NCBI GenBank assembly: GCA_029862925.1
Contig: JAOTWJ010000004.1
Span: forward strand, 503 to 64,502
DNA: 64,000 nt
Reading direction: 5' to 3'
From: Gemmatimonadota bacterium
GTDB lineage: Bacteria > Gemmatimonadota > Gemmatimonadetes > Gemmatimonadales > GWC2-71-9
The translations under genes were made by a program, and so were the position numbers. Positions 7,852-39,522 of this stretch are shown one piece after another; position 1 is the first letter of the stretch, and each line of letters opens with the position of its first letter. Under the pieces are notes generated by a model. That model saw nothing but the letters and a program-made list of their open reading frames with translations, did not search any database and was not told where the DNA came from.

Positions 7852-9464
7852 CGCACGCCCTCCGGCGTCCACGCCGCCAGCGCCCAGTGGAACGCCTCCT
7901 CCTCGGTATCCCACCGGCCACTCGTCCATCCCAGCTCCTCGGCAAACAGCGGCCGCAGGGTCGGGACGAGTGCCCGCGCCACCTGCGGATTCCACAGTCC
8001 CACCCGCACGCGGCGCAGCAGGAAATCTTCCAGCCGCAGCACGGCACCGAAGCGCAGGTGCACTCGTACCTCCGCCGCCGTGAGGTCGACGTCCTCGGCG
8101 ATCGGCTCGAGCTCGCGGGCGTCCCGCGCGAGGCGCGGCACCCACCAAACCAGGGCACGGAGCCGACGGGCCATCGCCGCCGCGATCGGACCCGCCACGG
8201 CCGTTTCCGCCCGGAGTCGATCGGCGAGGTCGGGCGGCGCCGTGCCCGCGAGCGGCGTACCCTCGGTGTGGCACTGGGCCGCGATCGTGGCCCGGTCTTC
8301 CGGCAGGTGGCGCACCGCCTCGTCCACGACCTCCGCAGCGGTCACCCGCCACGTCGTGAGCTTGCCCCCCGCCACCGACAGCAACCCCCGCTCTTCCCAG
8401 ATGTCCTCTTCACGGCTCGCTTCCGAAGGGTTTTCCGCATGCGTGTCGAGGATCGGGCGCAGTCCGGCGAAGGCCCCGACCACGTCCCGCTCCGTCACGT
8501 CCCGCCCCGGGAACCGTTCGCGTACCGCGCGCAGCAGGTAGGCGACTTCGCCGCGGGTAGCTCGCGGGTCGTCGAGCGGCCCCTCGTGGTAGAGATCCGT
8601 CGTCCCAATCAGGACCCCCTCGGGATGCGGGACCAGAAACACCGGGCGGCCATCGTCGGGCGACGGCAGGGTGACCGCCGCGGCCAGCGGCAGCGTGCGC
8701 CGTGACACGATGACATGCGACCCGCGGGACGGGCGCACGTGGCGTCCGGCCAGTCCGAACGCGTCGCGCACCTTATCGACCCATACGCCCGCGGCGTTGA
8801 CCACGACGTGGGCCCGAACCCGGTGCGTGCGCCCGCTCTCCACATCCCGCACCACGACCCCGGCAATGCGCTCGCCGTCGATCAGCGGCTCGAGCGCCTC
8901 GGCCCGGGTCAGCATGAGCCCGCCGAACGCGAACCCCGTGGCCGCCACCGCCAGGGTCAGCGCGGCGTCGTCCGCGACCGCGTCCGTGTACACCATCGCG
9001 CGCTCGAGACCGTCCAGAGAGATCCCCGGTGCCAGCGCGGCCAGTTCATCGGGCGTGATGTGCGTGTGCCGCTGCGGCTGCGTCGTCAGCCGATCGTACA
9101 TCCACAGCCCGAGATCCACGGTCCAGCCCGGCACGCGGTCCGCTTCCAACGCCGGATAGAGAAACCGGATCGGACGGACCAGATGCCGATCAAGCGTCAG
9201 CATGCGGTCGCGCTCGCGACAGGCGAGGCGCGTGATCCGAAACTGCATCTGCTTGAGATAGCGAAGCCCCCCGTGAATCAACTTGGAGGAGCGCGACGAC
9301 GTCCCTGACGCGATATCGTGCCGCTCGAGCAGCAGCACGCGCAGGCCCCGTTGCGCCGCATCCAGCAGAATACCGGCACCGGTGATGCCGCCACCGATCA
9401 CCACCAGGTCGAATAGATCGGTGAGGGACGCCACGGCGCGGGGGCGCCATCCGGCATGGAACAT
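7848..9464 (-). CDS. glpD: FAD-dependent glycerol-3-phosphate dehydrogenase/oxidase
   Basis: DLVVIGGGITGAG, GTSSRSSKLIHGGLRYL, VNAAGVW.D, IGTTD, AGLRP, GGKLTT.R. Confidence 0.88.
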   Translation of the reverse strand: MFHAGWRPRAVASLTDLFDLVVIGGGITGAGILLDAAQRGLRVLLLERHDIASGTSSRSSKLIHGGLRYLKQMQFRITRLACRERDRMLTLDRHLVRPIRFLYPALEADRVPGWTVDLGLWMYDRLTTQPQRHTHITPDELAALAPGISLDGLERAMVYTDAVADDAALTLAVAATGFAFGGLMLTRAEALEPLIDGERIAGVVVRDVESGRTHRVRAHVVVNAAGVWVDKVRDAFGLAGRHVRPSRGSHVIVSRRTLPLAAAVTLPSPDDGRPVFLVPHPEGVLIGTTDLYHEGPLDDPRATRGEVAYLLRAVRERFPGRDVTERDVVGAFAGLRPILDTHAENPSEASREEDIWEERGLLSVAGGKLTTWRVTAAEVVDEAVRHLPEDRATIAAQCHTEGTPLAGTAPPDLADRLRAETAVAGPIAAAMARRLRALVWWVPRLARDARELEPIAEDVDLTAAEVRVHLRFGAVLRLEDFLLRRVRVGLWNPQVARALVPTLRPLFAEELGWTSGRWDTEEEAFHWALAAWTPEGVR

Positions 9465-9467
9465 CGG

Positions 9468-11099
9468 TCACGACTCCAGGCGGTCCGTGGGATCGAGCAG
9501 CACGTGCGGGTTGAGGATGCCGGTCGGGTCCAGGCGGCGGGCGGCATCCCCGAGCAGTGCGGCGCCCGCCGGCCCAATCTCGCGCTCGAGCCAGGGCGCG
9601 TGCCAGCTGCCGACGCCGTGATGATGGCTGAGGGTTGCGCCAGCGGCAACAATCGCCTCCGTCGCGGCCCGCTTGAGCGTCGCCCACCGCGCGATCGCCT
9701 GGGCCGGATCCGGCGGACAGCGGAAAAACAGCGTGAAGTAGAGGGAGGCGCCGTCGCGGTACGGGTGCGACACGTGCGCGAGCACCACCACCTGTTCGTC
9801 CTCATGGACCAGCGTGCTCGTGAGCGCCGTTCCCACCGCCTCCCGCACCCGCTCGAGGCGCGCCCACGGCGCGGCCGTCTCAAGCGTGTCGGTCGCGACC
9901 CCCGCATCGAGCAGCGCATCCCGCAGATACGGGTGGCGGAACCGGTCGCTCAGCCAGCGTCGACCCGGGGTCCGGCCGAGGCCCACGCCGCCGTGCGAGC
10001 GGAGGATCGCCCGCGCGTCCCCGAGCGTCCGCCGCACGGTCGACGGGTCGCCGGCCGCCCCGAGCAGCATCAGGCACCCCCCCTCCCACGCGCCGCGCGC
10101 GGCCAGCCAGCGCCGCACGAGGGTGCCCACGATCCCGCGCCGCGCCAGCCCGAGCGCCATGCCGACGGTCGTCTCGCACTCGTCCGAGAGACGGAGCAGG
10201 GTCAGCGGCACGCCTTCCTGCACCACGTCACGGGCGGCGCTGAGACCCGCGCGCCAAGAGGGCAGCACGGTGCCGGTCACGACGAGCACCGGCGGCCGAC
10301 GTCGCACGCGCACGGTCGCCCGCGTCACGATGCCCAGCCGGCCCTCGCTCCCCGCCACGAGGTGCCGCAGATCGGGTCCCGCGGCGCTCGCGGGCCGCGC
10401 GCCCAACTCCAGCCGCCCGGCGGGCGCGACCAGCGTGAGACCCGCCACCAGCGCGTCGATCGAGCCGTAGCCGAGCGACTCCTGACCGGAGGACCGGGTG
10501 ACGATCCAGCCGCCCAGGGTGGACAGCTCCCACGATTGGGGAAAATGGCCGAGCGTGAGGCCGTAGCGCGCGAGGGCCGCTTCGAGCGCGGGACCGCGGA
10601 TCCCGGCACCGAACGTGGCGAGCCCCGACTCGCCGTCCACGTCGCCGAGCCCGTCGAGACGCTCGAGGTCCAGCGCGACCACCGGAGTGTCACCGGCGAC
10701 GCTGTTCACACCACCCGTGACCGACGTGCCACCCCCGAACGGGATCGCGCGCACGCCCGCCGCCGCGCAGGCCCGAAGGATCGCCTCCACCTGCGCGTCG
10801 TCGGTTGGGCGCACGACGCCGTCGGGTGCGCTGGTCACGGTGCCGGTACGGAACCGCAGCAGATCCGGGAGTCCCTGCCCGCGGGCGTGCGCGAGCCGGT
10901 CGTGTGGCTCCCGCCCGATTTCGAGGGGGAAGGCCGGCAGCGCGCGAGGGCCCGGGAGACGGACGTCCGGGGGCGTGTCGGCGACGCGGCCGTCGCAGGG
11001 ACCGAGCCGATGCTGCAACCACTGCAGCAGGTCCGGGGGCAGCGGATATCGCTCGCCCTCGAATCCCCACCCCCCCACTCGACGCCTGCGATCGGACAT
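9468..11099 (-). CDS. FAD-binding oxidoreductase, alkyl-dihydroxyacetonephosphate synthase (AgpS)-like
   Basis: PFGGGTSV, LGHFPQS.E.STLGGW..TRSSG..S..YG, GSEGRLG, HVSHPY.DGASLYF, SHHHGVG, DPTGILNP; start ATG 11099. Confidence 0.85.
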   Translation of the reverse strand: MSDRRRRVGGWGFEGERYPLPPDLLQWLQHRLGPCDGRVADTPPDVRLPGPRALPAFPLEIGREPHDRLAHARGQGLPDLLRFRTGTVTSAPDGVVRPTDDAQVEAILRACAAAGVRAIPFGGGTSVTGGVNSVAGDTPVVALDLERLDGLGDVDGESGLATFGAGIRGPALEAALARYGLTLGHFPQSWELSTLGGWIVTRSSGQESLGYGSIDALVAGLTLVAPAGRLELGARPASAAGPDLRHLVAGSEGRLGIVTRATVRVRRRPPVLVVTGTVLPSWRAGLSAARDVVQEGVPLTLLRLSDECETTVGMALGLARRGIVGTLVRRWLAARGAWEGGCLMLLGAAGDPSTVRRTLGDARAILRSHGGVGLGRTPGRRWLSDRFRHPYLRDALLDAGVATDTLETAAPWARLERVREAVGTALTSTLVHEDEQVVVLAHVSHPYRDGASLYFTLFFRCPPDPAQAIARWATLKRAATEAIVAAGATLSHHHGVGSWHAPWLEREIGPAGAALLGDAARRLDPTGILNPHVLLDPTDRLES

Positions 11100-24961: not shown

Positions 24962-25876
24962 ATGATTCTCTCGAGGCGCGCCGTGCTCGAACTGAGTGCA
25001 GGCGCGGGATTGGCTCTGACCCTCGGTGTCCGCCGACTGCGCGCGCAGGCCCGCGGGCTGATCACCCGGGCGATCCCGTCGAGCGGCGAACGGCTCCCGG
25101 TCGTCGGCATCGGCACCCGCGAGTACCGCACGGGCGCCGGAATCGACACGGCCCCGCTGCGGGCCACGCTCCAGGCGTTCGCGCAGGCCGGCGGCACGGT
25201 GGTGGACACCGCCCCTTCCTACGGCAACGCGGAGACGGCGCTGGGCGAGCTCGTCACCGACCTGGACCTGCGCGACCGGCTGTTCCTCGCGACGAAGGTG
25301 GACCGCGAAGGACGAGACGTGGGGGTGGAGCGCATGAACGCCTCGTTCGAGAAGCTCCGCACCGACCGCATCGACCTGATGCAGGTCCACAACCTCCGCG
25401 ACACCGCCACGCAACTCGCGACCATGCGGGAGTGGAAGCAGGCCGGGCGGATTCGCTACGTCGGGATCACGACCTCGTCGGATCGGCAGTACGACGCGTT
25501 CGAGCGGGTGATGGCGGCCGAGCAACTCGACTTCATCCAGGTAGACTACTCGCTCAACAATCGAACGGCCGCCGAACGCATCCTGCCGCTCGCCCAGGAC
25601 CGCGGCGCCGCCGTGCTGGTCAATCTCCCGTTCGGCCGCGCGAGTCTGTTCCGGGCCGTGGGCGACCGTGCGGTTCCGGGCTGGGCCGCGGAGTTCGACT
25701 GCACGAGCTGGGCGCAGTTCTTCCTCAAGTACATCATCGCCCACCCGGCTGTCACGTGCGCCATCCCTGGCACCACCAAGGACTACCACGCGGTGGACAA
25801 TATGGGGGCCGCCCAGGGGCGGCTGCCCGATGCCGCACTGCGGCGGCGGATGGAGGAGTTCTTCACGGGTCTGTAG
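24962..25876 (+). CDS. Aldo/keto reductase with Tat-like signal peptide
   Basis: AAGGAG RBS; SRRAVL Tat-like motif; IGIGT, DTAPSYG.AE, LATKV, IDLMQVHN, GRIRYVG, IPGT. Confidence 0.9.
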   Translation: MILSRRAVLELSAGAGLALTLGVRRLRAQARGLITRAIPSSGERLPVVGIGTREYRTGAGIDTAPLRATLQAFAQAGGTVVDTAPSYGNAETALGELVTDLDLRDRLFLATKVDREGRDVGVERMNASFEKLRTDRIDLMQVHNLRDTATQLATMREWKQAGRIRYVGITTSSDRQYDAFERVMAAEQLDFIQVDYSLNNRTAAERILPLAQDRGAAVLVNLPFGRASLFRAVGDRAVPGWAAEFDCTSWAQFFLKYIIAHPAVTCAIPGTTKDYHAVDNMGAAQGRLPDAALRRRMEEFFTGL

Positions 25877-25898
25877 CCCGGCCGTGCCCTCGGCGGAC

Positions 25899-25928
25899 GT
25901 GGCGGCCGGCCCGCGGCCCGGCCGCCAC
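25899..25928. terminator. GC hairpin after the AKR gene
   Basis: GTGGCGGCCGG-8nt-CCGGCCGCCAC; no U-tract. Confidence 0.4.
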
Positions 25929-26076
25929 ACTGGCCCCACGCCGGCCGAACGCGTATTCTACACGCCCCGGTGATCCAGACACATCCCGCGTTTCCTGAAG
26001 CGCCGTGCCATCGGCGCCCGGTTGCGTCCGTCCTCGCGTGGGACAGACGGAGCGGCTCGCGCCGTTGGGTGGCACC

Positions 26077-29000
26077 GTGACCAACCACTCGGCACCGCAG
26101 CCCGACACCGCACGCACCGAGATCCCGGCGGACCTGCGCACGGCGCTGCTCACCATGAGTACGCGCATCGCTGAGGCCCCCGACGAGGACGCCGTGTGCC
26201 GCAGCGTGGTGCAGGCCCTGCATCACCAGGCGTTCGGGTTCGACGGCGTCGGCCTGTACCTTGCCGGCACCTCGACCTTCGAGCCGGCGCTGCGCGCCGC
26301 GGCCGGGACGTTCGCGGACGCCAAGGACGGCGGCTCCGAGCTGCGATTCCCGCTGCGCCTCGAGCAGAGCGCCATCGGCGAGCTGGTCGTGCGCCGGGGC
26401 CGCGAGCATTCCTTCAGCAAGGGCGACCTCGAGATTCTCGCCGCGGCGGCCAACCAGGCGAGCATCGCCATTGCCCGCGCCCGGCTGCTCGATGCCGAGC
26501 GCAAGCGGCTCGGCGAGCAGCGTGCCCTCCTCGACACCCTCGCCGATCTCTCCGGCCAGCTCGAGCTGGACAAGCTGCTGCACGCCGTGCTGGAGCGCGC
26601 GGTCGATCTGCTGAGCGTGACCGGGGGCGAGCTCGCGATCTACGACGAGCGCAGTCGTGAGCTCGTCATCGCCGCGAGCCACAACATGCCGACCAATGCC
26701 GTCGGAGCCCGCATGACGCTCGGCGAAGGCGCGATGGGCCGCGTGGCCGAGACGCACGAACCGCTCATCATTCCGCGGTACCAGGAATGGGCCGGCCGCT
26801 CCGCCCAGTACACTCAGAGCAGCGTCCAGTCGGTGATGGCGGCGCCGTTGCTCATCGGGGACCGTCTCGTCGGCGCGATCGCGAGCGTGCACGCCGATCC
26901 GGCCCACACCTTCGGTGAGGGCGACCTGCGACTGCTCGGCCTGTTCGCCGCGCAGGCGGCCATCGCGATCGAGAACGCGCGTCTCTATACCGTGGAGCGC
27001 GAGCGGGCGACCGAACAAGAGGCGCTGCTCGACTCGCTCGCCGACCTCTCCGGCGAGCTCGAGCTGTCGAAGACCCTGCAGGCCGTGCTCGTCCGCGCAG
27101 TCGGCCTGCTCGACGTCACGGGCGGGGAGCTGGCCATCTACGAGGAGGGCACCGAGAGCCTCGTCGTGATGGCCAGTCACAACATGGAGACCAACGCGGT
27201 CGGGACGCGCATGGCGATCGGCGAAGGCGCCATGGGCCACGTGGCCAAGGCCCACGAGCCGCTCATCATTCCGCGCTATCAGGACTGGGAGGGGCGCTCG
27301 GCCCAGTACACGCAGAGCTCGGTCCAGTCCGTGATGGCGGTGCCGCTCATGATCGGGTCCCGGCTGGTGGGCGCGCTGGCGAGCGTCCACTCGGATCCCA
27401 AGCGTGAGTTCAGTGACGCGGACCTGCGCCGCCTCACGATGTTCGCGCCCCAAGCCGCCATTGCCATCGAAAACGCCCGGCTCTTCACGGCCGAGCGACG
27501 GCGGGCGGGGGAACAACGGGCACTGCTCGACACGATGAAGGACCTCTCGGGCGAGCTGGAGTTGGGCAAGGTCTTGCAGGGCGTGTTGCAGCGCGCCGTG
27601 ACCCTGCTCGGCGTCACCGGTGGCGAGCTCGCCACCTTCGACGAAACCCAGCAGACCCTGGTGGTCGCGGCGTCTCACAACCTCGAGACCGATGCGGTCG
27701 GCACGCGCATGCGCCTGGGTGAAGGCGCCATGGGCCACGTCGCCAAGACGCACGAGCCCCTCATCATCCCCCGCTACCAGGAGTGGCAGGGGCGCTCGCC
27801 CCAGTACACCCAGAGCAGCGTGCAGGCCGTCATGGCGGCACCGCTCCTGATCGGGAACCGGCTCGTGGGCGCCATCGCCAGCGTGCACTCGGATCCGCAT
27901 CGCGTCTTCGGCCCCGAAGACCTGCGGCTGCTGCAGCTGTTTGCCCCCCAGGCGGCGATCGCGATCGAGAATGCCCGCCTCTATGCCGCGCAGCAGCGCT
28001 ACTTCGAGAGCCTCGTGCTCAACAACCCCGTGGCCATCGCCAACCTCGACCTCGACTTCAACATCGTGTCGTGCAATCCGGCCTTCGAGCGGTTGTTCGG
28101 CTACACCGAAACGGAGATCATCGGACAGAATCTCGACCGGCTCGTCACCACCGAGGCCACGCTGGCCGAAGCGCAGTCGTACACCGGCGAAGCGGTGGAG
28201 GGGCGCACCGCCGGCGGCACCGGGAAGCGACGCCGCAAGGATGGCAGCTTCGTGGATGTCGAGATCTTCGCCATTCCAGTGTTCGTCGGTGAGGCCCGGG
28301 TCGGGATGATGGGACTGTACCACGACATCACGGAGTTGTTGCAGGCGCGGCGCGAGGCGGAGGCGGCCAATTCCGCCAAGAGCCAGTTCCTGGCCAGCAT
28401 GAGCCACGAGCTGCGCACGCCCTTGAATGCCATCATCGGCTACAGCGAGATGCTGCAGGAAGACGCCACCGACGCCGGCCAGCCGGCGTTCGTGCCCGAT
28501 CTCGAGAAGATCCACGCCGCCGGCCAGCACCTGTTGGCCCTGATCAACGACGTGCTTGATCTCTCCAAGATCGAGGCCGGCAAGATGGAGCTCTTCGTCG
28601 AGGAGTTCGACGTGCCGGAGGCCGTCACGGGGGTGGCGACGACCGTGCGGCCGCTGATCCTGAAGAACGGCAACACGCTGGTGGTCGAGGGCGCCGCGGC
28701 GGCGGGCCGCATGCGGTCGGATGCCACGCGGCTGCGCCAGATCCTGCTCAATCTGCTCTCCAACGCGTCGAAGTTCACCGAGGGGGGGACGATCACGCTG
28801 GCGGTGGCGCGGGCGGCGGGGTGGGTGACGTTCCAGGTGCGGGACACCGGGATCGGGATGACGGCCGAGCAGCGCGACCGGCTGTTCGAGGCGTTCACGC
28901 AGGCCGAGGCGTCGACGGCGGCGAAGTATGGCGGCACGGGGTTGGGGCTCACGATCAGCCGCCGGTTCTGTCAGATGATGGGTGGGGACATCACCGTTGC

Positions 29001-29892
29001 CAGCACGCCCGGCCAGGGGTCGACCTTCACGGTGCGCCTGCCCGTCACCGCGCCGGGGCCCCAGCCGGCGGGGGCCCCGGGGCCCGACCCGGCCGCGACG
29101 CCCGCCGGCGACGGGTCCCCCTCGGCCACCGCCGGCACCGTCCTCGTCATCGACGACGACCCGGCGGTGCGCAATCTGATGGCGCGGTTTCTGCGCAAGG
29201 AGGGCTACCGGGTCCTGCTGGCCGCCGACGGCCGGACAGGCATCGAGCTGGCGCGCTCGCAACGCCCCAACGCGGTGACGCTCGACGTGCTCATGCCCGA
29301 CCTCGACGGCTGGACCGTCCTGACGACCTTCAAGGAGGACCCGGCGCTCGCGGACATCCCCGTGATCATGGTGACCATCCTGGACGAGCAACGCCTCGGC
29401 TTTGCGCTCGGCGCGTCCGAGTACCTCACCAAGCCGATCGATCGCGCGCGGCTGCGGCGGGTGATCGGCACGTACGTGCCCGAGCGAGGGTCCGGTCGCG
29501 TGCTGATCGTGGATGACGACGCCGGCACGCGGACCCAGCTGCGCCGCGCGCTCGAGGCCGACGACTGGGCGGTCGCGGAGGCGGAGAACGGGCGCCGCGC
29601 GCTCGAACGGCTGGACGAGGGGCCGTTGGCGCTCGTGCTGCTCGACCTGATGATGCCCGAGATGGACGGCTTCGAGTTCCTCGAAGCGCTCCGGGCCCGC
29701 GAGACGGGACGCCGCACGCCCGTCGTCATCGTCACCGCCAAGGACCTGAGCGACGAAGACCATCGCCGCCTCACCGGCAGCGTCGAGCGCGTCGTCTCCA
29801 AGACGGATCGCGACCGTCAGACGCTGCTCGGCGAAGTCCGCGATCTCGTCGCCGCGTGCGTCGCCGCCCCGTCCCGACCGAACGGGCCATGA
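26077..29892 (+). CDS. Cytoplasmic hybrid histidine kinase: 4 GAF-PAS-HisKA-HATPase-REC-REC
   Basis: Shortened first GAF, then three 166-aa GAF repeats; PAS ([10 protein letters not shown]); [30 protein letters not shown]; two receivers. No TM segment. Start uncertain (GTG 26077; ORF from 26005). Confidence 0.93.
26515..28008 (+). repeat. Three tandem intragenic GAF repeats, 498-nt period
   Basis: EQ.ALLD...DLSG.LEL begins at 26515, 27013 and 27511; homologous units recur in the next two kinases. Confidence 0.85.
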
Positions 29893-32800
29893 GCGTCAAG
29901 CGACGCGCACCGCGGTCGACCACGGGCGTCGTGGCCCGCCGGCAGGCGGCATTGCTGCGCCTCGGCACCGCGATCGCGGTGGCCGAGACAGAGCGGGACG
30001 TCTGCCGGGCCGTCGTGGAGGGTCTGCACGACGCGGCCCTCGGATACGACTTCCTGGCGCTGCTGCTGGTCGACCGGGTCACCGGCGACCGGGTACTCGT
30101 CGCGAGTGCCGGCTGGGCGGAGGTGCCCGGCGACCTGCGCATCCGCCCTGGCCGGGGCCTGAGCGAGCGCCCGCTGCTCGACGGCCGGCTGCACTACACG
30201 CCGCAGGTCACGCGCGACACCCGGTACCTGCCGACCCGCAATGAGGGGTCCGAAGTCGACGTCCCGCTGCAGGTCAACCGTGAACTCGTCGGCGTGCTCG
30301 TGGTGGAAAGCAATCGCCCCGACGCGTTCGGGCCGGACGATTTCGAGATTCTCACGGCCGCCGCCAATCAGGCGGGGATCGCGATCGGGCGGACGCGGCT
30401 GCTGCACGCCCTGCACCGGCGCGCGGCGGAGGAGGAGGCCCTCCGCGCGACCATGGCCGATCTCTCCGGCCACCTCGAGCTCTCCACGCTCCTCCAGACC
30501 GTGCTCGATCGCGCCGTCACGCTGCTCGCCGTGAGTCACGGTGAGCTGGCCATCTACGACCCGCAGGCCGAGGAACTCGAGGTCGTCGCCAGCCGCAACG
30601 TGGGCCGCAGCGACACCACCGGCACACGCATGAAGGTGGGCGAAGGGGCCATGGGCCACGTGGCCCGCACCCGCGAGCCGCTGATCATCCCGCGGTACCA
30701 GGAATGGGTCGGCCGATCGCCGCAGTACGCGGAGGTGGAATTCTCCGGCGTCATGGTGGCACCGCTGCTGATGGCCGGTCAGCTCGTCGGGGCGATCGCG
30801 TTCATGGACAAGGACCCCGCGCGCCAGTTCGGCGAGGGCGACCTGCGGCTGCTCAACCTGTTCGCCGCCCAGGCGGCGGTGGCGATCGAGAACGCCCGGC
30901 TCTTTACCGCCGAACGGCGGCGGGCGGAAGAGCAGCAGGCCCTGCTCGACACGATGCAGGACCTGTCGGGGGAGCTCGAGCTCGGCAAGGTGCTCCAGGG
31001 GGTGCTCGAGCGGGCCGTCACGCTGCTGGATGTGACGGGCGGCGAGCTCGCGACCTTCGACGAGGTGCGGCAGGATCTCGTGATCGTCGCGAGCCACAAC
31101 ATGGGCGTCGATGCCGTGGGCACCCGCATGGCGCTCGGCGAAGGCGCGATGGGCCGGGTCGCCGAAACGCACGAGTCGCTCATCATTCCCCACTACCAGG
31201 AGTGGGCCAGCCGCTCCGGCAAGTACACCCAGAGCACCGTGCAGACGGTGATGGCCGCGCCGCTGCTGATCGGCGGCCGCCTCGCCGGAGCCATCGCCAG
31301 CGTGCATTCCGACCCCGCGCGCGTCTTCGGGCCTGAAGACCTGCGGCTCCTCGAGATGTTCGCGCCACAGGCGGCGATCGCCATCGAGAACGCCCGCCTC
31401 TTCACGGCCGCCAGCCGGCAGAAGCAGTATTTCGAAGAACTCGTGCTCAACAGCCCGGTGGCCGTCGTCACGCTCGACGCCGATCACAACGCCGTCGCCT
31501 GCAACCCGGCGTTCGAGCGGCTGTTCGGCTACACCGAGGCGGAGGTGCGCGGACGAAACCTCGACGACCTCATCACGACCGACGCCACCCGCGCGCAAGC
31601 CGTCGCGTACACCCAGCAGGCCCTCTCCCGGCGCCCCGTGAAGGTCATCAGCCAACGCCGCCGCAAGGATCACACGCTCGTGGACGTGGAGGTTCTCGGC
31701 GTCCCGATCGTGGTGGACGGCGAGCGCGTCGGCCTGATGGCGTTGTACCACGACATCACCGAGCTGCTGCTGGCGCGGCGCGAGGCCGAAGCCGCCAACT
31801 CCGCCAAGAGCCAGTTCCTGGCCAGCATGAGCCACGAGCTGCGCACGCCCTTGAACGCCATCATCGGCTACAGCGAGATGCTCGAGGAGGAACTGCAGGA
31901 CCGGGGCGACGAGCAGCTGTTGCCCGACCTCCGGAAGATCCACGCCGCCGGGAAGCACCTGCTGTCTCTGATCAACGACGTGCTCGATCTCTCCAAGATC
32001 GAGGCAGGCAAAATGGAGCTGTTTGCCGAGACTTTCGCCGTGCGGCCGATGCTGAATGACGTGATGACCACCGTGCAACCGCTCGTCGCCAAGAACGCGA
32101 ACACGCTCGTGCTGGACTGTGCCCCCGATGTGGGGAGCATGCACACCGATCTGACCCGGGTGCGCCAGGTGTTGCTGAACCTGCTGTCCAACGCGAGCAA
32201 GTTCACCGAGGCCGGGACGATCACCCTGCGCGCGCGGCGGGCGGGCGACATCGTGGAACTGGCCGTGGCGGACAGCGGGATCGGAATGACGCCGGAGCAA
32301 CTGCAACGCCTGTTCGAGGCCTTCACGCAGGCGGAGGCGTCCACCACGCGTCGGTTCGGTGGCACCGGCCTGGGGTTGACGATCAGCCGCCGGTTCTGTC
32401 AGATGATGGGCGGCGATATCGCGGTGACGAGCACCGCGGGCCAGGGGTCGACGTTCACGGTCCGCCTCCCCGCCACCTTGGCCGCCGACCAGCCGCCGGC
32501 GCCGGTCACCACGGACGTGGGTGCGGAGCCGGCGCCCGGCGACGGGACCGCCGGTACCGTGCTCGTGATCGACGACGATCCAGTCGCGCGGAACCTGGTG
32601 CGCCGGAACCTGGCCAAGGCCGGCTATCGCGTGGAGGAAGCCGGCGACGGGCCGACCGGACTCGCGCGGGCCCGCGCGCTCCGCCCGGACGTGATCACGC
32701 TCGACGTCATGATGCCGGGCATGGACGGCTGGGCCGTGCTCACGGCGCTCAAGGGCGACGCCGACGTCGCCGACATCCCGGTGGTCATGCTGAGCATCCT

Positions 32801-33308
32801 CGACGAGAAGACCATGGGCTTCACGCTGGGCGCATCGGACTACCTCACCAAACCGATCGATCGGCCACGCCTGCTCGCGGCCCTCGAGCGCTGCGCCGCG
32901 CGCGGCACCGCGGACGCCGAGGGCGTGCTCCTCGTGGAAGATGATGCGGACACCCGCGCCATGCTCCGCCGCATGCTGGAACGTGCCGGCTGGTCCGTGG
33001 CCGAGGCCGCCAATGGCCGCATCGCGCTCGAACAGCTCGCCACCCACACACCCCAGATCGTGCTGCTCGACCTGATGATGCCCGAGGTGGATGGGTTCGA
33101 GTTCCTCGAGGCGGTCCGGCAGCGGCCCGAGCTGAAGACCCTCCCCGTGATCGTGATCACGGCCAAGGACCTGACCGATGAGGATCTGCGCCGGCTGAAC
33201 GGTGGGGTCCAGGAGATCGTCCGCAAACGCGCCCATGGGGAGGACGAGTTGCTCGCCGAGATCCGCGACCTGGTGGCCACGCGGACCGACGTGGGGCGGG
33301 GGGCATAA
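29889..33308 (+). CDS. Cytoplasmic hybrid histidine kinase: 3 GAF-PAS-HisKA-HATPase-REC-REC
   Basis: ATGA overlap with the previous gene; the same motifs, with one N-terminal GAF and two repeat-type GAFs. Confidence 0.93.
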
Positions 33309-33313
33309 TCCCC

Positions 33314-35443
33314 GTGCCGCACCGGTCCCGCACCGGCCCGCGCACCACGAGCGCGCGCAGCGCGGCCGCCCATCGGCAGGCGGCCCTGCTCCGGCTGTCC
33401 ACGGCCATCGCGGCGGCCCAGGACGAGGAGGCGATCTACCGCAGCGTGGTCAACGGTCTCCACGACGAGGCCCTGGGCTACAACTTCCTCGGCGTGTTCC
33501 TGCTCGATTCGGAAACGGGAGACCGCGTGCTCCAGGCCAGCGTGGGATGGCCGGACGTCCCGACCGAGTGGCGGGTGCACCGGGGGGAGGGGTTGAGTGA
33601 GCAAGCGGTGCAGGACGGCAAGCTCCATTACACCCCCGACGTCACGCGCGAGTCGAAATATCTCCCCAGTCTGGCCAGTGGATCGGAGCTGGACGTGCCG
33701 CTGCGGGTGAACGGCCGCACGATCGGCGTCCTGGTGGTGGAGAGCGCCGAGCCCAACGCGTTCGGAGACGAGGACTTCGAGATCCTCCAGGCGGCCACCA
33801 ATCAGGCCGGTATTGCCATTGCCCGGGCACGCCTCCTCGAAGCCGAGCGGCGGCGCGCGGACGAGCACAAAGCCCTGCTCGATACCATGGCCGACCTCTC
33901 CTCGGAACTGGAGCTGTCGCGGGTCCTGCAAGCGGTGATCGAACGCGCGGTCACGCTGCTCGGCGTGACGGGCGGCGAAGTGGCCATCTATGAGGAGGAA
34001 ACGCGGGAACTCGTCGTCGTGGCGAGCGAGCGGATCGGCAAGGACTCCACCGGCACGCGGCTCAAGATGGGCGAGGGCGCCATGGGCACGGTCGCGCGCA
34101 CGCTCGAGCCACTGATCATCCCGTCCTATCACGAGTGGCTGGGGCAATCAGCGAAGTACGCCGACGTCCTGGTCCACTCGGTCATGGCGGCGCCACTGCT
34201 CATCGGCCGCCGACTGGTGGGCGCCATTGCCACGGTCCACTCGGATCCGGCCCGCGTGTTCAACCAGGAGGACCTGCGGCTGCTGAACCTGTTCGCGCCC
34301 CAAGCCGCCGTCGCGATCGAGAACGCCCGCCTGTACACCGCAGCGCAACGGCAACGGCAGTATTTCCGCGAACTCGTACGCAACAGCCCCGTCGCGATCG
34401 TCACGCTCAACCAGGTCTATCGCGTCGTCGAGTGCAACCCGGCCTTCGAGTCGCTGTTTGGGTATCCGCAGGCGGAGGCGGTCGGGCGCAATCTGGACGA
34501 GCTGATTGCCACCGACGCCACGCGCGAAGAGGCCGAGCAGTACACGCGCGAAGCGCTCGACCGGCCGGTGCACGGCATCGGCCGGCGCAAGCGCAAGGAC
34601 GGTACGATGGTGGACGTGGAGATCCTCGGCGTGCCCGTAATCGTCGACGACGAGCGCGTCGGTCTCATGGGATTGTACCACGACATCAGCGAGTTGCTCC
34701 AGGCCCGGCGCGACGCCGAAGCCGCCAACTCGGCCAAGAGCCAGTTCCTGGCGAGCATGAGCCACGAACTGCGCACCCCGCTCAACGCCATCATCGGCTA
34801 CAGCGAGATGCTCCAGGAAGAGGTCGAGGAGCTCCGGCAGCCGCAGCTGCAGGACGACCTCACGAAAATCAACACGGCCGGCCGGCACCTGCTGGAGCTC
34901 ATCAACGATATCCTCGATCTCTCCAAGATCGAAGCGGGCAAGATGCAGCTCCACCTGGAGACGTTTCCCATCGAGCCCATGCTGGAGGACGTGATCACGA
35001 CGGTCCGGCCGCTGGTGATGAAGAACGCCAACCACCTGGAGGTGCGGCGGGCCGATCGCCTGGGCACGCTGCGGGCGGATCTGACCAAGGTGCGTCAGAT
35101 GCTGCTGAACCTGCTGTCCAACGCGTGCAAGTTCACCGACCACGGGACCATCACCCTCTCGGCCGACCGGGACGACCAGCACGTGGTGTTCACGGTGCGG
35201 GACTCGGGCATCGGGATGACGGCCGAGCAGATGGAGCGGCTGTTCGAGGCGTTCGCGCAGGCGGACGCCGCGACCACCAGCAAGTACGGCGGCACGGGGC
35301 TCGGCCTGGTCATCACGAAACGTTTTGCACACCTGATGGGCGGCGACGTCCAGGTCATGAGCACGCCGGGCAAGGGCAGTACCTTCACGATCGAGCTGCC
35401 GGCACGGGGCCCCGACGGCGACCGCGAGCCGGCGACGGACTGA
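33314..35443 (+). CDS. Cytoplasmic histidine kinase: 2 GAF-PAS-HisKA-HATPase (no receiver)
   Basis: Paralog of the two upstream kinases; ends just after STFTIELP. Confidence 0.93.
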
Positions 35444-35461
35444 CGAGGAGGGAGCGAGGCG

Positions 35462-35833
35462 ATGGCGAGAATCCTCTTGGTCGAGGACAACGAGATGAAC
35501 CGCGACATGCTGTCGCGCCGACTCCAGCGCAAGGGGTACGAGATCACCATGGCAGTGGACGGCCGGGAAGGCGTGGACAAGGCGCGCACGGGGGGATTCG
35601 ACCTGATTCTGATGGACATGAGTCTCCCTGAAATCGACGGTTGGGAGGCCACCCGGCAGCTGCGCGCCGTTCCCGAGACTGAACACACCCCCATCATCGC
35701 GCTCACGGCCCACGCCATGGCGGGCGACCGCGAGAAGGCGCTGGAGGCAGGCTGCGATGACTACGACACCAAGCCGATCGAGCTGCCGCGGCTGCTCGAG
35801 AAGATCGAGACGCTCTTGAGGCGCGACGCGTGA
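35462..35833 (+). CDS. Single-domain response regulator (DivK-like)
   Basis: ILLVEDN, DLILMDMSLP.IDGW, IIALTAHAM, YDTKP; GGAGG RBS. Confidence 0.95.
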   Translation: MARILLVEDNEMNRDMLSRRLQRKGYEITMAVDGREGVDKARTGGFDLILMDMSLPEIDGWEATRQLRAVPETEHTPIIALTAHAMAGDREKALEAGCDDYDTKPIELPRLLEKIETLLRRDA

Positions 35834-37752
35834 CCGACTTCGCCGCCTTCGCCGGGCCGCTCACGCCGGAGCTCGCCTCCGAGTTGCGGCACGAACTGCG
35901 CACGCCCGTGAATCACATCGTGGGCTACGCGGAGATGCTGATCGAGGACGCCGAAGACGCGGGCGCGACCGAGCGCAAGGGCATGCTGGACGAGACGCTG
36001 ACCGCGGCGCGCGAGGTGTTGACGATCATCAATCAGATGCTTCCGCCTGGCGTCGCCACCATCGGTCGCGAAGCCGTCGATGGTCTGTTCGAGCGCCTGC
36101 GCACCCCGCAGGGCAAGATCGTCCACCTAGTCGACGGCCTGCTCGCAACGGTCACCGACGATTCCGCCGTCCAGGACCTCCACAAGATCCGCCGTGCAGC
36201 CCAACGCCTCGTCCCCGCACCCGCGGCGCCGGCACCGGCCGGCACGCCGCAGCCGGCGGCAGGACTCCCCAGTACTGCGGACGGCTCCACGCCGGCGCGG
36301 TTGCTCGTGGTCGACGACGACACCGGCAACCGCGATGTCCTCCGCCGTCGGCTCGAGCGCGAAGGGTATCAGGCCGAGTGCGCGGAGAACGGCCGCCAAG
36401 CCCTCGACCGCATCGCCGCGGAGCGGTTCGATCTCGTGCTGCTGGACGTCCTGATGCCGGAGCTCGACGGCTACGAGGTGCTCACGCGGCTCAAGGAGGC
36501 ACCGGCCACGCGCGACATCCCCGTCATCGTCATCTCGGCCCTCGACGACATGCCGAGCATCGTCCGCTGCATCGAGCGGGGCGCCGAAGACTATCTCACG
36601 AAGCCGTTCGACCCGATTCTGCTGCGCGCTCGGATCAGTGCGTCGCTCGAGAAGAAGCGCCTGCACGATCTGGAGCTGGAGTTCATCCGCCAGGTCGGGC
36701 GGGTGACCGAGGCCGCGACCGCGGTCGAGGACGGGACGTACCGGTCCGGGACGCTCGACGACGTCGCCGCCCGGGGCGATGCCCTCGGCCGCCTCGCCCG
36801 GGTCTTTGACGGGATGGCCGCGGAGGTACAGGCGCGGGAGCGGCGGCTGAAGGACCGGTTACGCGAGCTGCGGGCCGACATCGGCATTGCCCGCACGTCG
36901 CACGAGATGCCGGCGGTGCTCGATGGGGGGGCCCTCGAGCTCGGCCATCACTTCGCCGAACGCTACGAGATCGTGGCCATGATCGGCACCGGTGGCATGG
37001 GAACGGTGTACCGCGCCCGCGACCTGGAGCTCGACGAGGAAGTCGCCATCAAGACGCTCCGGCCGGAGCTGATGATGGACGAAACCCTGCTCGAGCGCTT
37101 CAAGAGCGAGATCCGGCTGGCCCGCCGCATCTCCCACCGCAACGTCGTGCGCACCCACGACTTCGGCGAGTGGCGCGGGGTGTCGTACTTGACGATGGAG
37201 TACGTCGAGGGACTCACCGTGCGCGACCTGATCCAGGCCCGCGGGCCGCTCCAGGCGCCGTCGGCCCTGGCCATCGCCACCCAGCTCGCGGAGTCGCTCA
37301 CCGTTGCCCACGAACAGGGAGTCGTCCATCGGGACATCAAGCCACAGAATCTGCTGCTCGACGCCAACGGCGTGCTGAAGGTGATGGACTTCGGGATCGC
37401 CCGGCTGGCCGAGAGCACGAGCGCGCTCACGGTTGCCGGACTCATCATTGGGACACCGGCCTACATGGCGCCCGAACAGCTGCTCGCAGAAACGGCGGAC
37501 GCCCGGAGCGACCTTTACGCCATGGGCGTGGTCCTGTACGAGTGCCTGACCGGCCAGCTGCCGTTCGACGCCCCGACCCCAGTCTCCCTCGTGGCCAAGG
37601 TGCTCAGCGAGGACCCGACCCCTCCGACCTCGCTCACCCCCGACATTCCCCCCGCCCTGTCCGCGCTCGTCCTCCGCCTGCTGGCCAAACGGCCCGAAGA
37701 TCGGGTCCAGTCGGCGAGCGAGCTCGCGGGCTTGCTCCGGCAGATCGGCTAG
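35830..37752 (+). CDS. HisKA-REC-HAMP-like-Ser/Thr protein kinase fusion
   Basis: HELRTPVNHIVGY (no HATPase); VVDDD/LLDVLMP/LTKPF; R.D.LG.LARVF..M HAMP-like segment; IGTGGMG, VAIK, HRDIKPQN, DFG, GTPAYMAPE. Confidence 0.9.
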   Translation: MTDFAAFAGPLTPELASELRHELRTPVNHIVGYAEMLIEDAEDAGATERKGMLDETLTAAREVLTIINQMLPPGVATIGREAVDGLFERLRTPQGKIVHLVDGLLATVTDDSAVQDLHKIRRAAQRLVPAPAAPAPAGTPQPAAGLPSTADGSTPARLLVVDDDTGNRDVLRRRLEREGYQAECAENGRQALDRIAAERFDLVLLDVLMPELDGYEVLTRLKEAPATRDIPVIVISALDDMPSIVRCIERGAEDYLTKPFDPILLRARISASLEKKRLHDLELEFIRQVGRVTEAATAVEDGTYRSGTLDDVAARGDALGRLARVFDGMAAEVQARERRLKDRLRELRADIGIARTSHEMPAVLDGGALELGHHFAERYEIVAMIGTGGMGTVYRARDLELDEEVAIKTLRPELMMDETLLERFKSEIRLARRISHRNVVRTHDFGEWRGVSYLTMEYVEGLTVRDLIQARGPLQAPSALAIATQLAESLTVAHEQGVVHRDIKPQNLLLDANGVLKVMDFGIARLAESTSALTVAGLIIGTPAYMAPEQLLAETADARSDLYAMGVVLYECLTGQLPFDAPTPVSLVAKVLSEDPTPPTSLTPDIPPALSALVLRLLAKRPEDRVQSASELAGLLRQIG

Positions 37753-38405
37753 CGCCGTCCCCCCACCCCGGGCATCTCCATCGGGGTCTCCGTAATGGAG
37801 GACTTCGCGTCCTTCCCGTGCTTGACCAGCACCATCTCGCCGCGGCCCTCCCAGATCAGCTTCACGAGCCCGAACGGGATGTCCGTCGAGACCCACCCCT
37901 CGCCCTGCCCGCCCGCCGTCGTGCGGAAGTGCACGGTCGCCAGCTTGCCCGCCGGAACCTCGATGGTCTCGCGACCCACGATCTGCGCCTCCGTGCACTG
38001 CTTGAGGGCGTCGCCCATGGACGACCCCGGGTTGCGCATCCGTTGCTGCATCATCGAGAGCATCGACTTGGGCATCTTCATCGCCGGCTGGTCGCCTGCC
38101 TTCATGACCATCGCCTCGATGTCCGCCTGCTCGTAGGGGAAGCCCGTCACGAGCACCTGGCTGATCACCGTCCCCTGCGGGGACGCCATCTTCATCTCGT
38201 GCCAGTAGTGGTCCTTCCCGTTGACGGCTTCCTTGCCCACGATGGCGAACCGCAGGTCCATCGTCCCCTCCGGCGCCGTCATGCGGTATTCGGCCCACTG
38301 GCCCACGGTCACGTGACCGATCATCTCGCACAGCTCCGCCGCGGTCTGTGCGGGGAGCGACGTGGCGCCGGTCATGAAGGCGACGAGGATGAGTAACATT
38401 CGCAT
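37749..38405 (-). CDS. Secreted hypothetical protein
   Basis: GGAG RBS; signal peptide ending LPA-Q; VGQWAEY; E.I.VPAG......F; W.S..IPFGLVK. Confidence 0.75.
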   Translation of the reverse strand: MRMLLILVAFMTGATSLPAQTAAELCEMIGHVTVGQWAEYRMTAPEGTMDLRFAIVGKEAVNGKDHYWHEMKMASPQGTVISQVLVTGFPYEQADIEAMVMKAGDQPAMKMPKSMLSMMQQRMRNPGSSMGDALKQCTEAQIVGRETIEVPAGKLATVHFRTTAGGQGEGWVSTDIPFGLVKLIWEGRGEMVLVKHGKDAKSSITETPMEMPGVGGRR

Positions 38406-38541
38406 CGGAAGATCTCCTTCGACAAAAGCTGGGGTCGAATCGTGCCGGGCGGGCGTCCGGGTCAATGGTCCCGGCATCGCTGCCGGGAACCTATACCGCC
38501 GCTACCCGCGAACGCAAAGCCTCGCCGCCGCCTGCCTCCCG

Positions 38542-39522
38542 CTACGGCCGCGTGGCCAGCGGCAGAAACCGCTTGGGAAACTTCGCCACGACCGTGTACG
38601 CGGGATCGACGACGTTGGCCACCGTGCTTTCCACCACCTGGCCGAGGACCGCGTAGGCGTCCCACCGGTCGAACCCGTAGTCCTGCTCCAGCCACTCGAC
38701 AAGCTCGACATGAGCGAGCCGGAACGCGTCGATCAGGGGACGGGCACTCCCCGCCACCATGATGTAGCGGTCGTTCTCCAACCGGGGCCAGTCGATGGTC
38801 CGCCCCCGCAGGAGATCGATTCGCAGCACGACGTCCATGCTGGTCTCGAGACCGGTGCCGGCGACTTCACCGTGTCCCTGGCGTGCGTGGCCGTCGCCGA
38901 AATAGAAGTACGCCCCGTCGTGAAAGATCGGCAGATAGACCGTCGTCCCCTCACGAATCTCGGGCGCATCCATGTTTCCGCCAAAGTCGCCGGGCCAGAG
39001 ACCGCCAAACGCTTCCGCGCCGCGCGGGGCCACCGCCACCCGTCCCAGCATGGGCTGGAGATCGATCTCGATCCGCCGTGCCCGGCTGTTCGGCAGCTCG
39101 GTGGTGGCGGTCATGCGGTCCCGATCCAGCCGCCACACATACCGCCGGGTCGGGATCGGGTCGTTGAGCAAGCGGACGCGCGCGTCAGCGGACAGGCCGC
39201 CGAATTCCGGACGGACCCGCGACGCCGCGAGAGGGTAGTTGGGACGAATCCGCAGAATCTCGACGACCAGGACGTCGCTCGTCGTTGCGCCCTCGACGAG
39301 GATCGGCCCCACCTCCCCGGGGAAAGCCCCGCCTTCCTCGGTGTAGTAAGCACCGAAGTTCGTCTGGGAGATGAGCACGGTGTTGGGACGGATTCGGAGC
39401 ACCGGCTCGCGGACAGCAAACGTCGGCTGCTGGATCGTGGGTGTGAATCGCACCGTGTCCTGGGCGTGAAGCGGCACGAACGGGCAGGTCGTGGCGAGCA
39501 GCGTGGCGCCGAGTAGTCGCAT
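38542..39522 (-). CDS. Acetamidase/formamidase family protein, secreted
   Basis: GPI.VEGA...D.L.V.I, PMLG.V.VAP, FGGNMD, GDGHA.QG.GE..G.GLE; signal peptide ending LHA-Q. Confidence 0.88.
   Translation of the reverse strand: MRLLGATLLATTCPFVPLHAQDTVRFTPTIQQPTFAVREPVLRIRPNTVLISQTNFGAYYTEEGGAFPGEVGPILVEGATTSDVLVVEILRIRPNYPLAASRVRPEFGGLSADARVRLLNDPIPTRRYVWRLDRDRMTATTELPNSRARRIEIDLQPMLGRVAVAPRGAEAFGGLWPGDFGGNMDAPEIREGTTVYLPIFHDGAYFYFGDGHARQGHGEVAGTGLETSMDVVLRIDLLRGRTIDWPRLENDRYIMVAGSARPLIDAFRLAHVELVEWLEQDYGFDRWDAYAVLGQVVESTVANVVDPAYTVVAKFPKRFLPLATRP

Follow-up and report, generated by a model that had tools for sequence, protein, structure and literature searches.

A five-gene operon of Gemmatimonadota that may gate a Hanks-type Ser/Thr kinase by a His-Asp phosphorelay, and the wider relay chassis to which its parts appear to belong

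The window analysed in this work is a stretch of 64,000 nucleotides from a Gemmatimonadota bacterium (GenBank assembly GCA_029862925.1, contig JAOTWJ010000004.1, positions 503 to 64,502 of the forward strand), and the system of interest within it is an operon of five genes. These encode three sensor kinases (HK1, HK2 and HK3), a small stand-alone receiver (REC, viz. P0002) and a protein (P0001, hereafter the fusion) which joins a DHp module, a receiver and a Ser/Thr kinase; residue numbers are given under these names. We propose, with a probability of about 0.5, that this operon specifies a linear, Spo0-like four-step His-Asp-His-Asp phosphorelay that gates the Ser/Thr kinase, where each transfer step and its direction are deduced from the sequences. 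According to this proposal, cytoplasmic ligands would trigger autophosphorylation of the three soluble GAF-PAS kinases, which would then phosphorylate the small receiver as their common hub, and the small receiver would hand the phosphoryl group to His21 in the ATPase-less tandem-DHp module of the fusion. From His21 the group would pass to Asp206 of the tethered receiver and, once phosphorylated, this receiver would alter a HAMP-like linker and a coiled coil, so that the Hanks kinase is switched and its substrates are phosphorylated. The receivers carried by HK1 and HK2 would in this scheme be dispensable modulators or phosphate sinks.

The fusion protein provides the central evidence for this proposal. 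In Pfam scans, P0001 matches HisKA (residues 14-71; 40.2 bits, cut-off 26.9), Response_reg (159-269) and Pkinase (379-627; 179.2 bits, cut-off 31.7), with no match to HATPase_c, Hpt or any DNA-binding or cyclase family, and the Hpt domain (PF01627) is not matched in any of the five operon proteins at E values up to 0.01. With HisKA but no HATPase_c, the fusion does not qualify as a sensor histidine kinase and, as its DHp module cannot autophosphorylate without the latter domain, His21 suits the role of a phosphoryl acceptor and donor. His21, the Asp, Ser and Lys residues of the receiver and every motif of the kinase (viz. K408, HRDIKPQN at 500-507, DFG at 520-522 and PE at 548-549) are invariant in all 48 of the 48 orthologues compared, and in the wider family of related modules His21 is conserved at a level of at least 90%.

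The H-box region consists of two tandem DHp-like hairpins and not of one, which refines the earlier domain list. Only 87 residues separate the HisKA match from the fused receiver, and these are accounted for by the second hairpin and a Pro/Ala tether. Comparison by hhalign identifies residues 80-127 as a diverged copy of residues 12-76, both with profiles of the wide family (98.4%, E 6.7e-15) and with those of close orthologues (60%, E 8.7e-5); the position equivalent to His21 in this second hairpin is occupied by E, D, A or S. The duplication is visible only by such profile-profile comparison, and a Pfam scan of hairpin 2 alone gives no match. In its sequence features, viz. a DHp-like hairpin, a conserved His and no ATPase domain, the module corresponds to a phosphotransferase of the DHp type, and an ATPase-less duplicated DHp module with an invariant His is likely to be a histidine phosphotransferase. 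The presence of two tandem hairpins in one chain also suggests that they form an intramolecular bundle rather than a homodimer.

The kinase part of the fusion retains the Gly-rich loop, the VAIK Lys and the HRD, DFG and PE motifs, as in Hanks-type kinases (PF00069). A search of PDB with residues 371-640 found the Mycobacterium tuberculosis kinase PknB (1o6y, 1mru and others) as the closest solved relative, with E of about 4e-67, and the NCBIfam model PknB_PASTA_kin scores 345 bits on P0001, below its cut-off of 450; nor is the cut-off of any other NCBIfam model reached by one of the five proteins. With residues 1-378, PDB sequence matches were confined to the receiver part. The fusion is single-copy in its genome, which contains dozens of further matches to the kinase domain alone. 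For the linker at residues 272-345, HAMP (PF00672) is not listed for P0001, but it is listed for 8 of 120 close homologues, and it is matched in two relatives of the module, P0170 (32.4 bits) and P0134 (28.2 bits), where the cut-off is 25. The idea that this linker was acquired together with the kinase was rejected, as stand-alone DHp-receiver-linker proteins have the linker too.

The three sensor kinases score 74-79 bits for HisKA and 106-112 bits for HATPase_c, which identifies them as sensor histidine kinases, and no hydrophobic run of 17 or more residues was found in them by a crude check, a result that fits soluble proteins; no LOV motif was found in any of the three. With GAF domains counted as GAF_2 stretches, the Pfam totals for the operon are nine GAF domains, three PAS domains and six receivers. 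All six receivers retain the acidic pair, the phospho-accepting Asp, the T/S residue and the Lys expected of response regulators (PF00072), and in the second receivers of HK1 and HK2 this Lys is without a following Pro. The transmitter core of HK3 is 65-66% identical to those of HK1 and HK2, compared with 36% for the best other kinase in the genome, and 55-62% identical to those of kinases from similar cassettes in other phyla; judged by these identities, the transmitter core travels with the cassette and the parts are co-inherited. Two further likenesses concern surfaces of contact. The H-box helix of the kinases is nearly the same as that of hairpin 1 in the fusion, and the motif NRDxLxRRL is present in the first helix of both the small receiver and the fused receiver and absent from the receivers of the hybrid kinases. 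The closest solved relatives of the small receiver are Rec1 of PleD, DivK and receivers of hybrid kinases.

The five open reading frames, all on the plus strand (26005/26077-37752), follow one another almost without gaps, and their GC3 of 0.88-0.91 indicates that all are coding. Alignments with HK1 orthologues begin at about residue 29-42 of the longer frame, due to which a GTG start at 26077 is plausible, and those with HK2 orthologues begin at about residue 19-29 of the longer frame; the true start of HK2 is likely to be the ATG at 29889. With this start the HK1/HK2 junction is an ATGA overlap, and it is followed by a 5-nt gap between HK2 and HK3, an 18-nt gap between HK3 and REC, and a GTGA overlap in which the start of the fusion gene lies over the stop of REC. 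An initial annotation, made from the DNA letters of the window, had described five co-oriented genes which overlap or lie less than 20 nt apart, three soluble GAF-PAS histidine kinases with nine GAF and three PAS inputs, a single-domain receiver among six receivers in all, and a last protein joining an H-box, a receiver and a complete Hanks kinase as the only output domain of the operon. The junctions, Pfam matches and motifs described above agree with this anatomy, with the H-box region now resolved into two hairpins. Its further statement that the operon has no DNA-binding regulator, cyclase or Hpt holds for Pfam families, but in functional terms the absence of an Hpt is doubtful, as the ATPase-less duplicated DHp module is a likely histidine phosphotransferase.

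The same arrangement is conserved within the Gemmatimonadota. More than 119 homologues of the fusion are found at 61% or higher identity, and HisKA, Response_reg and Pkinase occur together in 119 of the 120 listed homologue rows, the exception being a 481-aa fragment; the close homologues of window proteins that carry an organism name among 120 listed rows are all (7 of 7) from Gemmatimonadota. In a sample of 151 Gemmatimonadota genomes, 29 match the fusion at E values up to 1e-100, with 26 full-length and 3 partial matches. Contexts of 20 kb were taken for 20 of the matching genomes, and every one of these loci shows, on one strand, one to four GAF-PAS kinases, then the small receiver and then the fusion, with the receiver directly adjoining the fusion; the remaining flanks are not conserved. 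The possibility, raised with the initial annotation, that the kinase fusion is a one-off domain accident is rejected by the homologue listing, by the 151-genome sample and by this gene order. Searches of 201 Acidobacteriota, 151 Myxococcota and 151 Planctomycetota genomes did not find the fusion at E values up to 1e-90 among the 6-8 candidates scored for each genome.

The number and kind of the kinases differ between these loci, and a genome of the same genus has two, compared with three in the window. A lone hybrid kinase is present in four loci, and two (L045 and L049) have only non-hybrid kinases, yet the small receiver and the DHp module are kept in them. Across the 20 loci, the receivers of the hybrid kinases are thus optional or dispensable by their pattern of occurrence while the small receiver is always kept, at 70-87% identity to P0002; no other part of the system is conserved as well. 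A P0002-type receiver (at least 66% identity) is found in 33 of the 151 genomes, including all 28 of the 28 fusion genomes formed by the 26 with full-length matches and two with partial ones (G128 and G048); the 29th match (G085) covers residues 286-640 only and its genome is without a P0002-type receiver.

The five genomes with such a receiver but without the kinase fusion served as a test of the pairing between receiver and DHp module. One of them (G116) has a kinase, the receiver and a tandem-HisKA-receiver-cyclase. In another (G106; locus L130, about 2583-3980, minus strand), a hybrid kinase and a P0002-type receiver are followed by a 466-aa protein with HisKA, RsbRD_N and a second HisKA with HATPase_c, which looks like a DHp module placed ahead of another kinase instead of a receiver. 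The remaining three (G053, G138 and G150; loci L131-L133) belong to one genus, g16, and have, in this order, a hybrid kinase, a P0002-type receiver of 67-71% identity and a lipoprotein-like 459-aa gene. The last of these was examined for a hidden DHp module, but none was found within it and it looks like a lipoprotein. The pairing has therefore held in two of three lineages, since G116 and G106 fit it and the g16 genus does not. The g16 cassette is a natural "DHp-less" version that can be compared with the full relay.

Two side observations were made on the fusion loci. In 5 of the 20 loci (L030, L032, L033, L035 and L039), a second and separate Hanks kinase gene lies at most about 3 kb downstream on the same strand, its product being about 675-785 aa where complete (in L033 it is cut by the end of the locus); there is no such gene at this place in the window. 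In L059, from a Gemmatimonadaceae metagenome-assembled genome, the fusion is split at about 7982-10256 into a DHp-receiver-linker frame and a linker-kinase frame, probably by a frameshift or an assembly error.

Beyond the Gemmatimonadota, the DHp-receiver module of the fusion occurs with other outputs. A search with residues 1-378 against 1.84 billion representative proteins gave many proteins matching across the DHp region, receiver and linker, and of the top 150 matches 56 were scanned with Pfam. Apart from further fusions with Pkinase (P0122, P0131, P0137, P0208 and P0211), the module was found joined to SpoIIE/PP2C (P0167, P0185 and P0210), to HD_5 (P0148, from Anaerolineaceae by its record name), to Guanylate_cyc (P0213 and P0251), to TIR_2 (P0203, a 479-aa metagenome representative; TIR_2 83 bits) and to a complete histidine kinase (e.g. 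P0188, P0243 and P0269). P0203 would be a receiver-controlled TIR protein, which may be of interest for NAD-consuming signalling or defence. About 30 clusters of about 366-441 aa contain the module in stand-alone form; these proteins (e.g. P0128, P0130 and P0138; alignment A2) comprise the tandem DHp, receiver and HAMP-like linker only, and have a conserved C-terminal tail with the consensus ...VAEITETxYF..LQ..A..LR that no Pfam family covers.

A scan of species-representative genomes with the module alignment yielded 80 loci, and 49 proteins from 15 of those outside the Gemmatimonadota were scanned with Pfam. Cassettes of a kinase, a receiver of about 125 aa and a HisKA-only-receiver-cyclase are present in Bryobacterales, Burkholderiales, a gammaproteobacterium, a deltaproteobacterium, Methylocystis and Arenicella, and a Verrucomicrobiae genome has the cassette arrangement with a PP2C output; in the gammaproteobacterial locus (L058) and the Verrucomicrobiae locus (L060), Pfam HisKA is not matched at threshold and the DHp module is identified by a local hidden Markov model. 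An Acidobacteria genome encodes a HisKA-only-receiver-PP2C protein whose small receiver and hybrid kinase are encoded by the other strand. The sensors of these cassettes differ widely (dCache-HAMP-PAS, Cache_3-Cache_2, GAF and PAS_7), and their small receivers are 64-75% identical to P0002; for the receiver of L095, a cassette that lacks a DHp module, the identity is no more than 48%.

With a P0002-type receiver defined here by at least 60% identity over at least 100 aa, it is present in 17 of the 23 loci having a DHp-only-receiver protein, compared with 2 of the 57 loci lacking one. The six misses comprise two loci at contig edges (L071 and L080), one with an apparent frameshift (L053), two with receivers of 56% identity (L084 and L088) and a different Gemmatimonadaceae locus (L073). 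These counts are to be read as an association and not as independent events. In a quick tree of the modules, 9 of the 10 kinase-output rows form one clade (SH-aLRT 100), to which a single, possibly truncated row also belongs, and outside this clade the outputs are interleaved, which for a quick tree is weak evidence. As judged from these comparisons, at least six other phyla share the transmitter core, the small receiver and the tandem-DHp-receiver, combined there with a cyclase, PP2C or some other output. The Ser/Thr kinase would thus be one plug-in output of a wider chassis, since the same parts carry other outputs elsewhere, and the system cannot be regarded as specific to this organism or to this output.

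Receiver-Pkinase clusters from other phyla are also listed in the protein atlas, with scores below 0.9 and as leads only, due to which the bare receiver-kinase architecture can be said to be visible in databases. One related frame, a receiver-Hanks kinase on a 3.5-kb contig of a Holophagales metagenome-assembled genome (L107), has no DHp module by our local models and is 42% identical to P0128 (the first sequence of the module alignment) over P0128 residues 162-341. Receiver-kinase fusions outside the Gemmatimonadota may be independent inventions.

Based on these results, the linear relay is the most economical reading of the operon. It is favoured by the invariance of the phospho-residues, the lack of an ATPase domain beside His21 and the strict gene order with translational coupling, and likewise by the facts that the hybrid receivers are dispensable, that the small receiver is always kept and that the parts co-occur. 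The 64-75% identity of the small receiver across phyla is as expected of a hub constrained by several partners, and the contact helices match in the manner that the relay would need, viz. kinase H-box with hairpin 1 and small receiver with fused receiver. The shape of the relay also has a precedent, as Pak-SdrG-PhyT-PhyR and MrrA-PhyK-PhyR are proven pathways (PMC5898713, PMC5964349). Of the conversion of a His-Asp relay into Ser/Thr phosphorylation put forward in the initial annotation, the anatomy stands and proves to be conserved, and the small receiver is probably a hub rather than an accessory; the individual phosphotransfers and the control of the kinase by the receiver continue to be predictions. 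The description of the pathway as self-contained goes beyond what can be shown, because elsewhere in the genome there are Hpt domains and dozens more matches to Hanks kinases.

Several observations weigh against a strictly linear relay. The shared contact helices would also permit the kinases to phosphorylate the fused receiver directly. The cassette at L095 consists of a kinase, a receiver and a receiver-cyclase without a DHp module, and in the three g16 genomes a receiver-SpoIIE/PP2C protein is encoded convergently at a distance of about 2 kb, by a gene that leaves no space for a DHp module; since both lack it, the DHp step is not always needed for a working pathway. L080 has a DHp-receiver-cyclase without an intervening small receiver, although this locus is near a contig start. 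The Hpt domains found elsewhere in the genome (G000; contigs C44, 774-1486, and C282, 12898-13182) could serve the hybrid kinases, and the co-occurrence counts overstate independence because the genomes are related and the loci were chosen by module similarity. Further, P0002 is not of the FATGUY class known for SdrG and MrrA (PMC9981736).

The alternative that survives best, which we consider rather unlikely, is a branched two-component system in which the small and the fused receiver are each a direct target of the kinases. The DHp module, no obligatory step in this scheme, would shuttle phosphate to and fro between the receivers or act as a phosphatase, and the small receiver, as a sink or buffer, would determine at what threshold the Ser/Thr kinase responds and how long it takes to reset. 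The common NRDxLxRRL face of the two receivers and the near-identical H-box helices of the kinases and hairpin 1 make such cross-reaction plausible, and the H-box of the fusion shows the pattern HExxT, the phosphatase motif of HisKA proteins. The branched system also accords with natural variants that are without the DHp module although kinase, small receiver and an output-bearing receiver are all retained, and with the reports that kinases of the PhyT system also phosphorylate the terminal regulator in vitro and that LovK/LovR behaves as a sink (PMC5898713, PMC5964349). However, one would not expect a mere sink to be better conserved across phyla than every other cassette protein, nor to co-occur so tightly with the DHp module (17/23 versus 2/57 loci), and an invariant His covalently tethered to a receiver suggests productive transfer.

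It is less probable still, and in our estimate improbable, that the phosphoryl group moves from the kinase His to the kinase's own receiver, then to the DHp module of the fusion as a stand-in for Hpt and on to the fused receiver, with the small receiver having only a modulating role, e.g. by DivK-like allosteric binding to DHp. HK1 and HK2 are indeed hybrids with intact receivers, hybrids normally require a histidine phosphotransferase, the operon is without a Pfam Hpt, and DivK and PleD Rec1 are among the closest solved relatives of the small receiver. However, the small receiver and DHp module are kept in L045 and L049 in the absence of any hybrid kinase, HK3 is itself non-hybrid, the first helices of the hybrid receivers are unlike the NRDxLxRRL face of the other two receivers, and the small receiver retains every phospho-acceptor residue. 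Finally, a reverse or scaffold logic, in which the Ser/Thr kinase is an input acting by phosphorylation on kinases or receivers from the same operon, or in which DHp module and receiver are mere dimerisation or docking modules to which no phosphate flows, agrees with the lack of a linked substrate gene and with the existence of Ser/Thr kinases that phosphorylate two-component proteins, but is very improbable, as the strict invariance of His21, Asp206 and the other residues of phospho-chemistry is hard to reconcile with a passive scaffold and the same chassis ends elsewhere in outputs (cyclase, PP2C, HD and TIR).

The coordinates of the genes and of the domains of the fusion are listed in Table 1. 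The window has a G+C content of 70% and is situated on contig C97 of a genome of 3.49 Mb in 290 contigs. On its 5' side the operon is separated by 129-200 nt from an aldo-keto reductase gene, and on the other side a 242-aa open reading frame of the minus strand (37749-38477; GC3 0.91), for which no Pfam family is matched, converges with the fusion gene and overlaps its stop by 4 nt. The flanking genes, encoding a DPP-IV peptidase, an MBL-rhodanese protein, the aldo-keto reductase, an acetamidase-like protein and a fatty acid desaturase, are unrelated and are not conserved beside the operon, due to which the neighbourhood offers no candidate substrate; no FHA, PP2C or other linked candidate was found in the window. 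A promoter and terminator scan of 25700-38600 gave no promoter-like site and one terminator-like site (minus strand, inside HK1); neither count exceeds what shuffled sequence would give, and at 70% GC the scan is uninformative. Elsewhere in the genome, the Hpt match on C44 lies in a 189-aa frame beside a receiver match and may belong to a separate phosphotransfer protein for other hybrid kinases.

Table 1. Genes of the operon and domains of the fusion protein, in window coordinates
Feature	Position	Strand	Remarks
HK1	26077..29892 (start 26005 or 26077)	+	soluble hybrid kinase: 4 GAF, PAS, HisKA, HATPase_c, 2 Response_reg (Pfam)
HK2	29889..33308 (longest frame from 29856)	+	soluble hybrid kinase: 3 GAF, PAS, HisKA, HATPase_c, 2 Response_reg (Pfam)
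HK3	33314..35443	+	soluble non-hybrid kinase: 2 GAF, PAS, HisKA, HATPase_c, no receiver (Pfam)
REC (P0002), 123 aa	35462..35833	+	Response_reg only (Pfam); proposed phosphate shuttle or hub
Fusion (P0001), 640 aa	35830..37752	+	tandem DHp, receiver, HAMP-like linker, Hanks Ser/Thr kinase
DHp hairpin 1, residues 12-76	35863..36057	+	H-box, motif HELRTP; His21 at 35890-35892, invariant in 48/48 orthologues
DHp hairpin 2, residues 80-127	36067..36210	+	internal duplicate of hairpin 1, no conserved His
Pro/Ala-rich variable tether, residues 128-155	36211..36294	+	between DHp module and receiver; mean identity 23%
Fused receiver, residues 156-271	36295..36642	+	Asp162/163, Asp206 (36445-36447), Ser236 and Lys258 invariant
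HAMP-like linker (272-345) and pre-kinase helix (346-378)	36643..36963	+	conserved in orthologues
Hanks-type Ser/Thr kinase domain, residues 379-640	36964..37749	+	complete catalytic motif set; closest solved relative M. tuberculosis PknB

Two-component and Hanks-kinase signalling are usually treated as separate layers with mere cross-talk between them. If the proposed relay is correct, an entire lineage of bacteria has wired a phosphorelay fed by several kinases firmly to a Ser/Thr kinase, as a bacterial counterpart of the logic of yeast Sln1-Ypd1-Ssk1-Ssk2, and the chassis behind the operon would be widespread, apparently unstudied and provided with exchangeable outputs. A broader proposal, which we hold tentatively as falling somewhat short of an even chance, is that the tandem-DHp module is a single-chain four-helix bundle derived by duplication of a kinase hairpin and represents a third structural solution to histidine phosphotransfer beside Hpt and dimers of the Spo0B/ChpT type. 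This module, a hub receiver that hardly varies and a transmitter core dedicated to them would make up a plug-and-play chassis distributed over many phyla, in which sensors and outputs (cyclase, PP2C, HD, TIR or histidine kinase) are swapped and which in the Gemmatimonadota would convert a His-Asp relay into Ser/Thr phosphorylation. Four soluble proteins would constitute a compact test system for the control of a Hanks kinase by a receiver and for the purpose of the extra relay steps, and could reveal whether a duplicated DHp hairpin works as a monomeric phosphotransferase. The operon would also offer a first handle on signalling in the Gemmatimonadota, a common yet little-studied soil phylum.

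Among the known systems, the sporulation relay of Bacillus subtilis consists of KinA-E, Spo0F, Spo0B and Spo0A, in which Spo0B is a homodimeric protein of the DHp type without kinase activity. The proposed relay resembles it in that several soluble PAS kinases would feed one single-domain receiver, followed by a kinase-inactive DHp phosphotransferase and a terminal receiver controlling the output. However, the phosphotransferase and the terminal receiver are here one polypeptide, the DHp region is internally duplicated and without a CA-like domain, unlike the Spo0B homodimer, and the output is a Hanks kinase in place of a DNA-binding domain; no sequence kinship of the fusion with Spo0B was detectable in the PDB sequence search, where only the receiver part was matched. 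ChpT, another phosphotransferase of this type, has a degenerate CA domain. In yeast, the His-Asp-His-Asp relay Sln1-Ypd1-Ssk1-Ssk2 finally controls a Ser/Thr kinase, but there the kinase is a separate protein to which the receiver protein binds, and a classical Hpt serves as phosphotransferase, whereas here receiver and kinase are fused and the system is bacterial. The kinase domain shares its catalytic motifs with M. tuberculosis PknB, which, unlike the fusion, is a membrane receptor kinase with PASTA sensors.

A similar overall shape is found in the alphaproteobacterial stress relays, in which many kinases feed a single-domain receiver hub, a kinase-derived phosphotransferase and a terminal regulator (PMC5898713, PMC5964349). 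As described there, PhyT transfers phosphate from SdrG to PhyR, which it also binds and sequesters (PMC5898713), a sequestration that the covalent DHp-receiver fusion would make permanent, and PhyK transfers phosphate from MrrA, which is fed by at least six kinases, to PhyR (PMC5964349). Unlike the fusion, PhyT and PhyK are separate proteins, membrane-bound or full-length and kinase-like (PMC5898713, PMC5964349), SdrG and MrrA bear the FATGUY motif where P0002 has LTAHAM (PMC9981736), and the output of those relays, in the same accounts, is a partner-switch regulator of a sigma factor and not a Hanks kinase. In the Caulobacter CckA-ChpT-CtrA/CpdR pathway, a DHp-type phosphotransferase similarly moves phosphate between intermediary and terminal receivers by way of promiscuous DHp/receiver contact patches, but the intermediary receiver belongs to the hybrid kinase and ChpT is a separate protein (PMC9981736). 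The cyanobacterial cbSTKIII/HstK dual kinases also combine a Hanks kinase with two-component domains in one polypeptide; in these, the Ser/Thr kinase is followed by GAF, HisKA and ATPase domains, i.e. by a complete histidine kinase, and there is no receiver (PMC2176072). With the order DHp-receiver-kinase, no ATPase domain and no GAF domain, the fusion is not a member of that group. Full-text literature searches gave no description of the operon, of a receiver-Hanks kinase fusion, of a receiver-controlled Hanks kinase or of HisKA-only-receiver proteins; supplementary files were outside their scope, and the response-regulator census of Galperin (2006) may list the receiver-kinase architecture. 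Compared with the Spo0, ChpT and PhyT systems, the arrangement described here differs by the fusion of the predicted phosphotransferase with the terminal receiver, a duplicated DHp region without a CA-like domain, a Hanks kinase as the output and the presence of the whole set in one operon.

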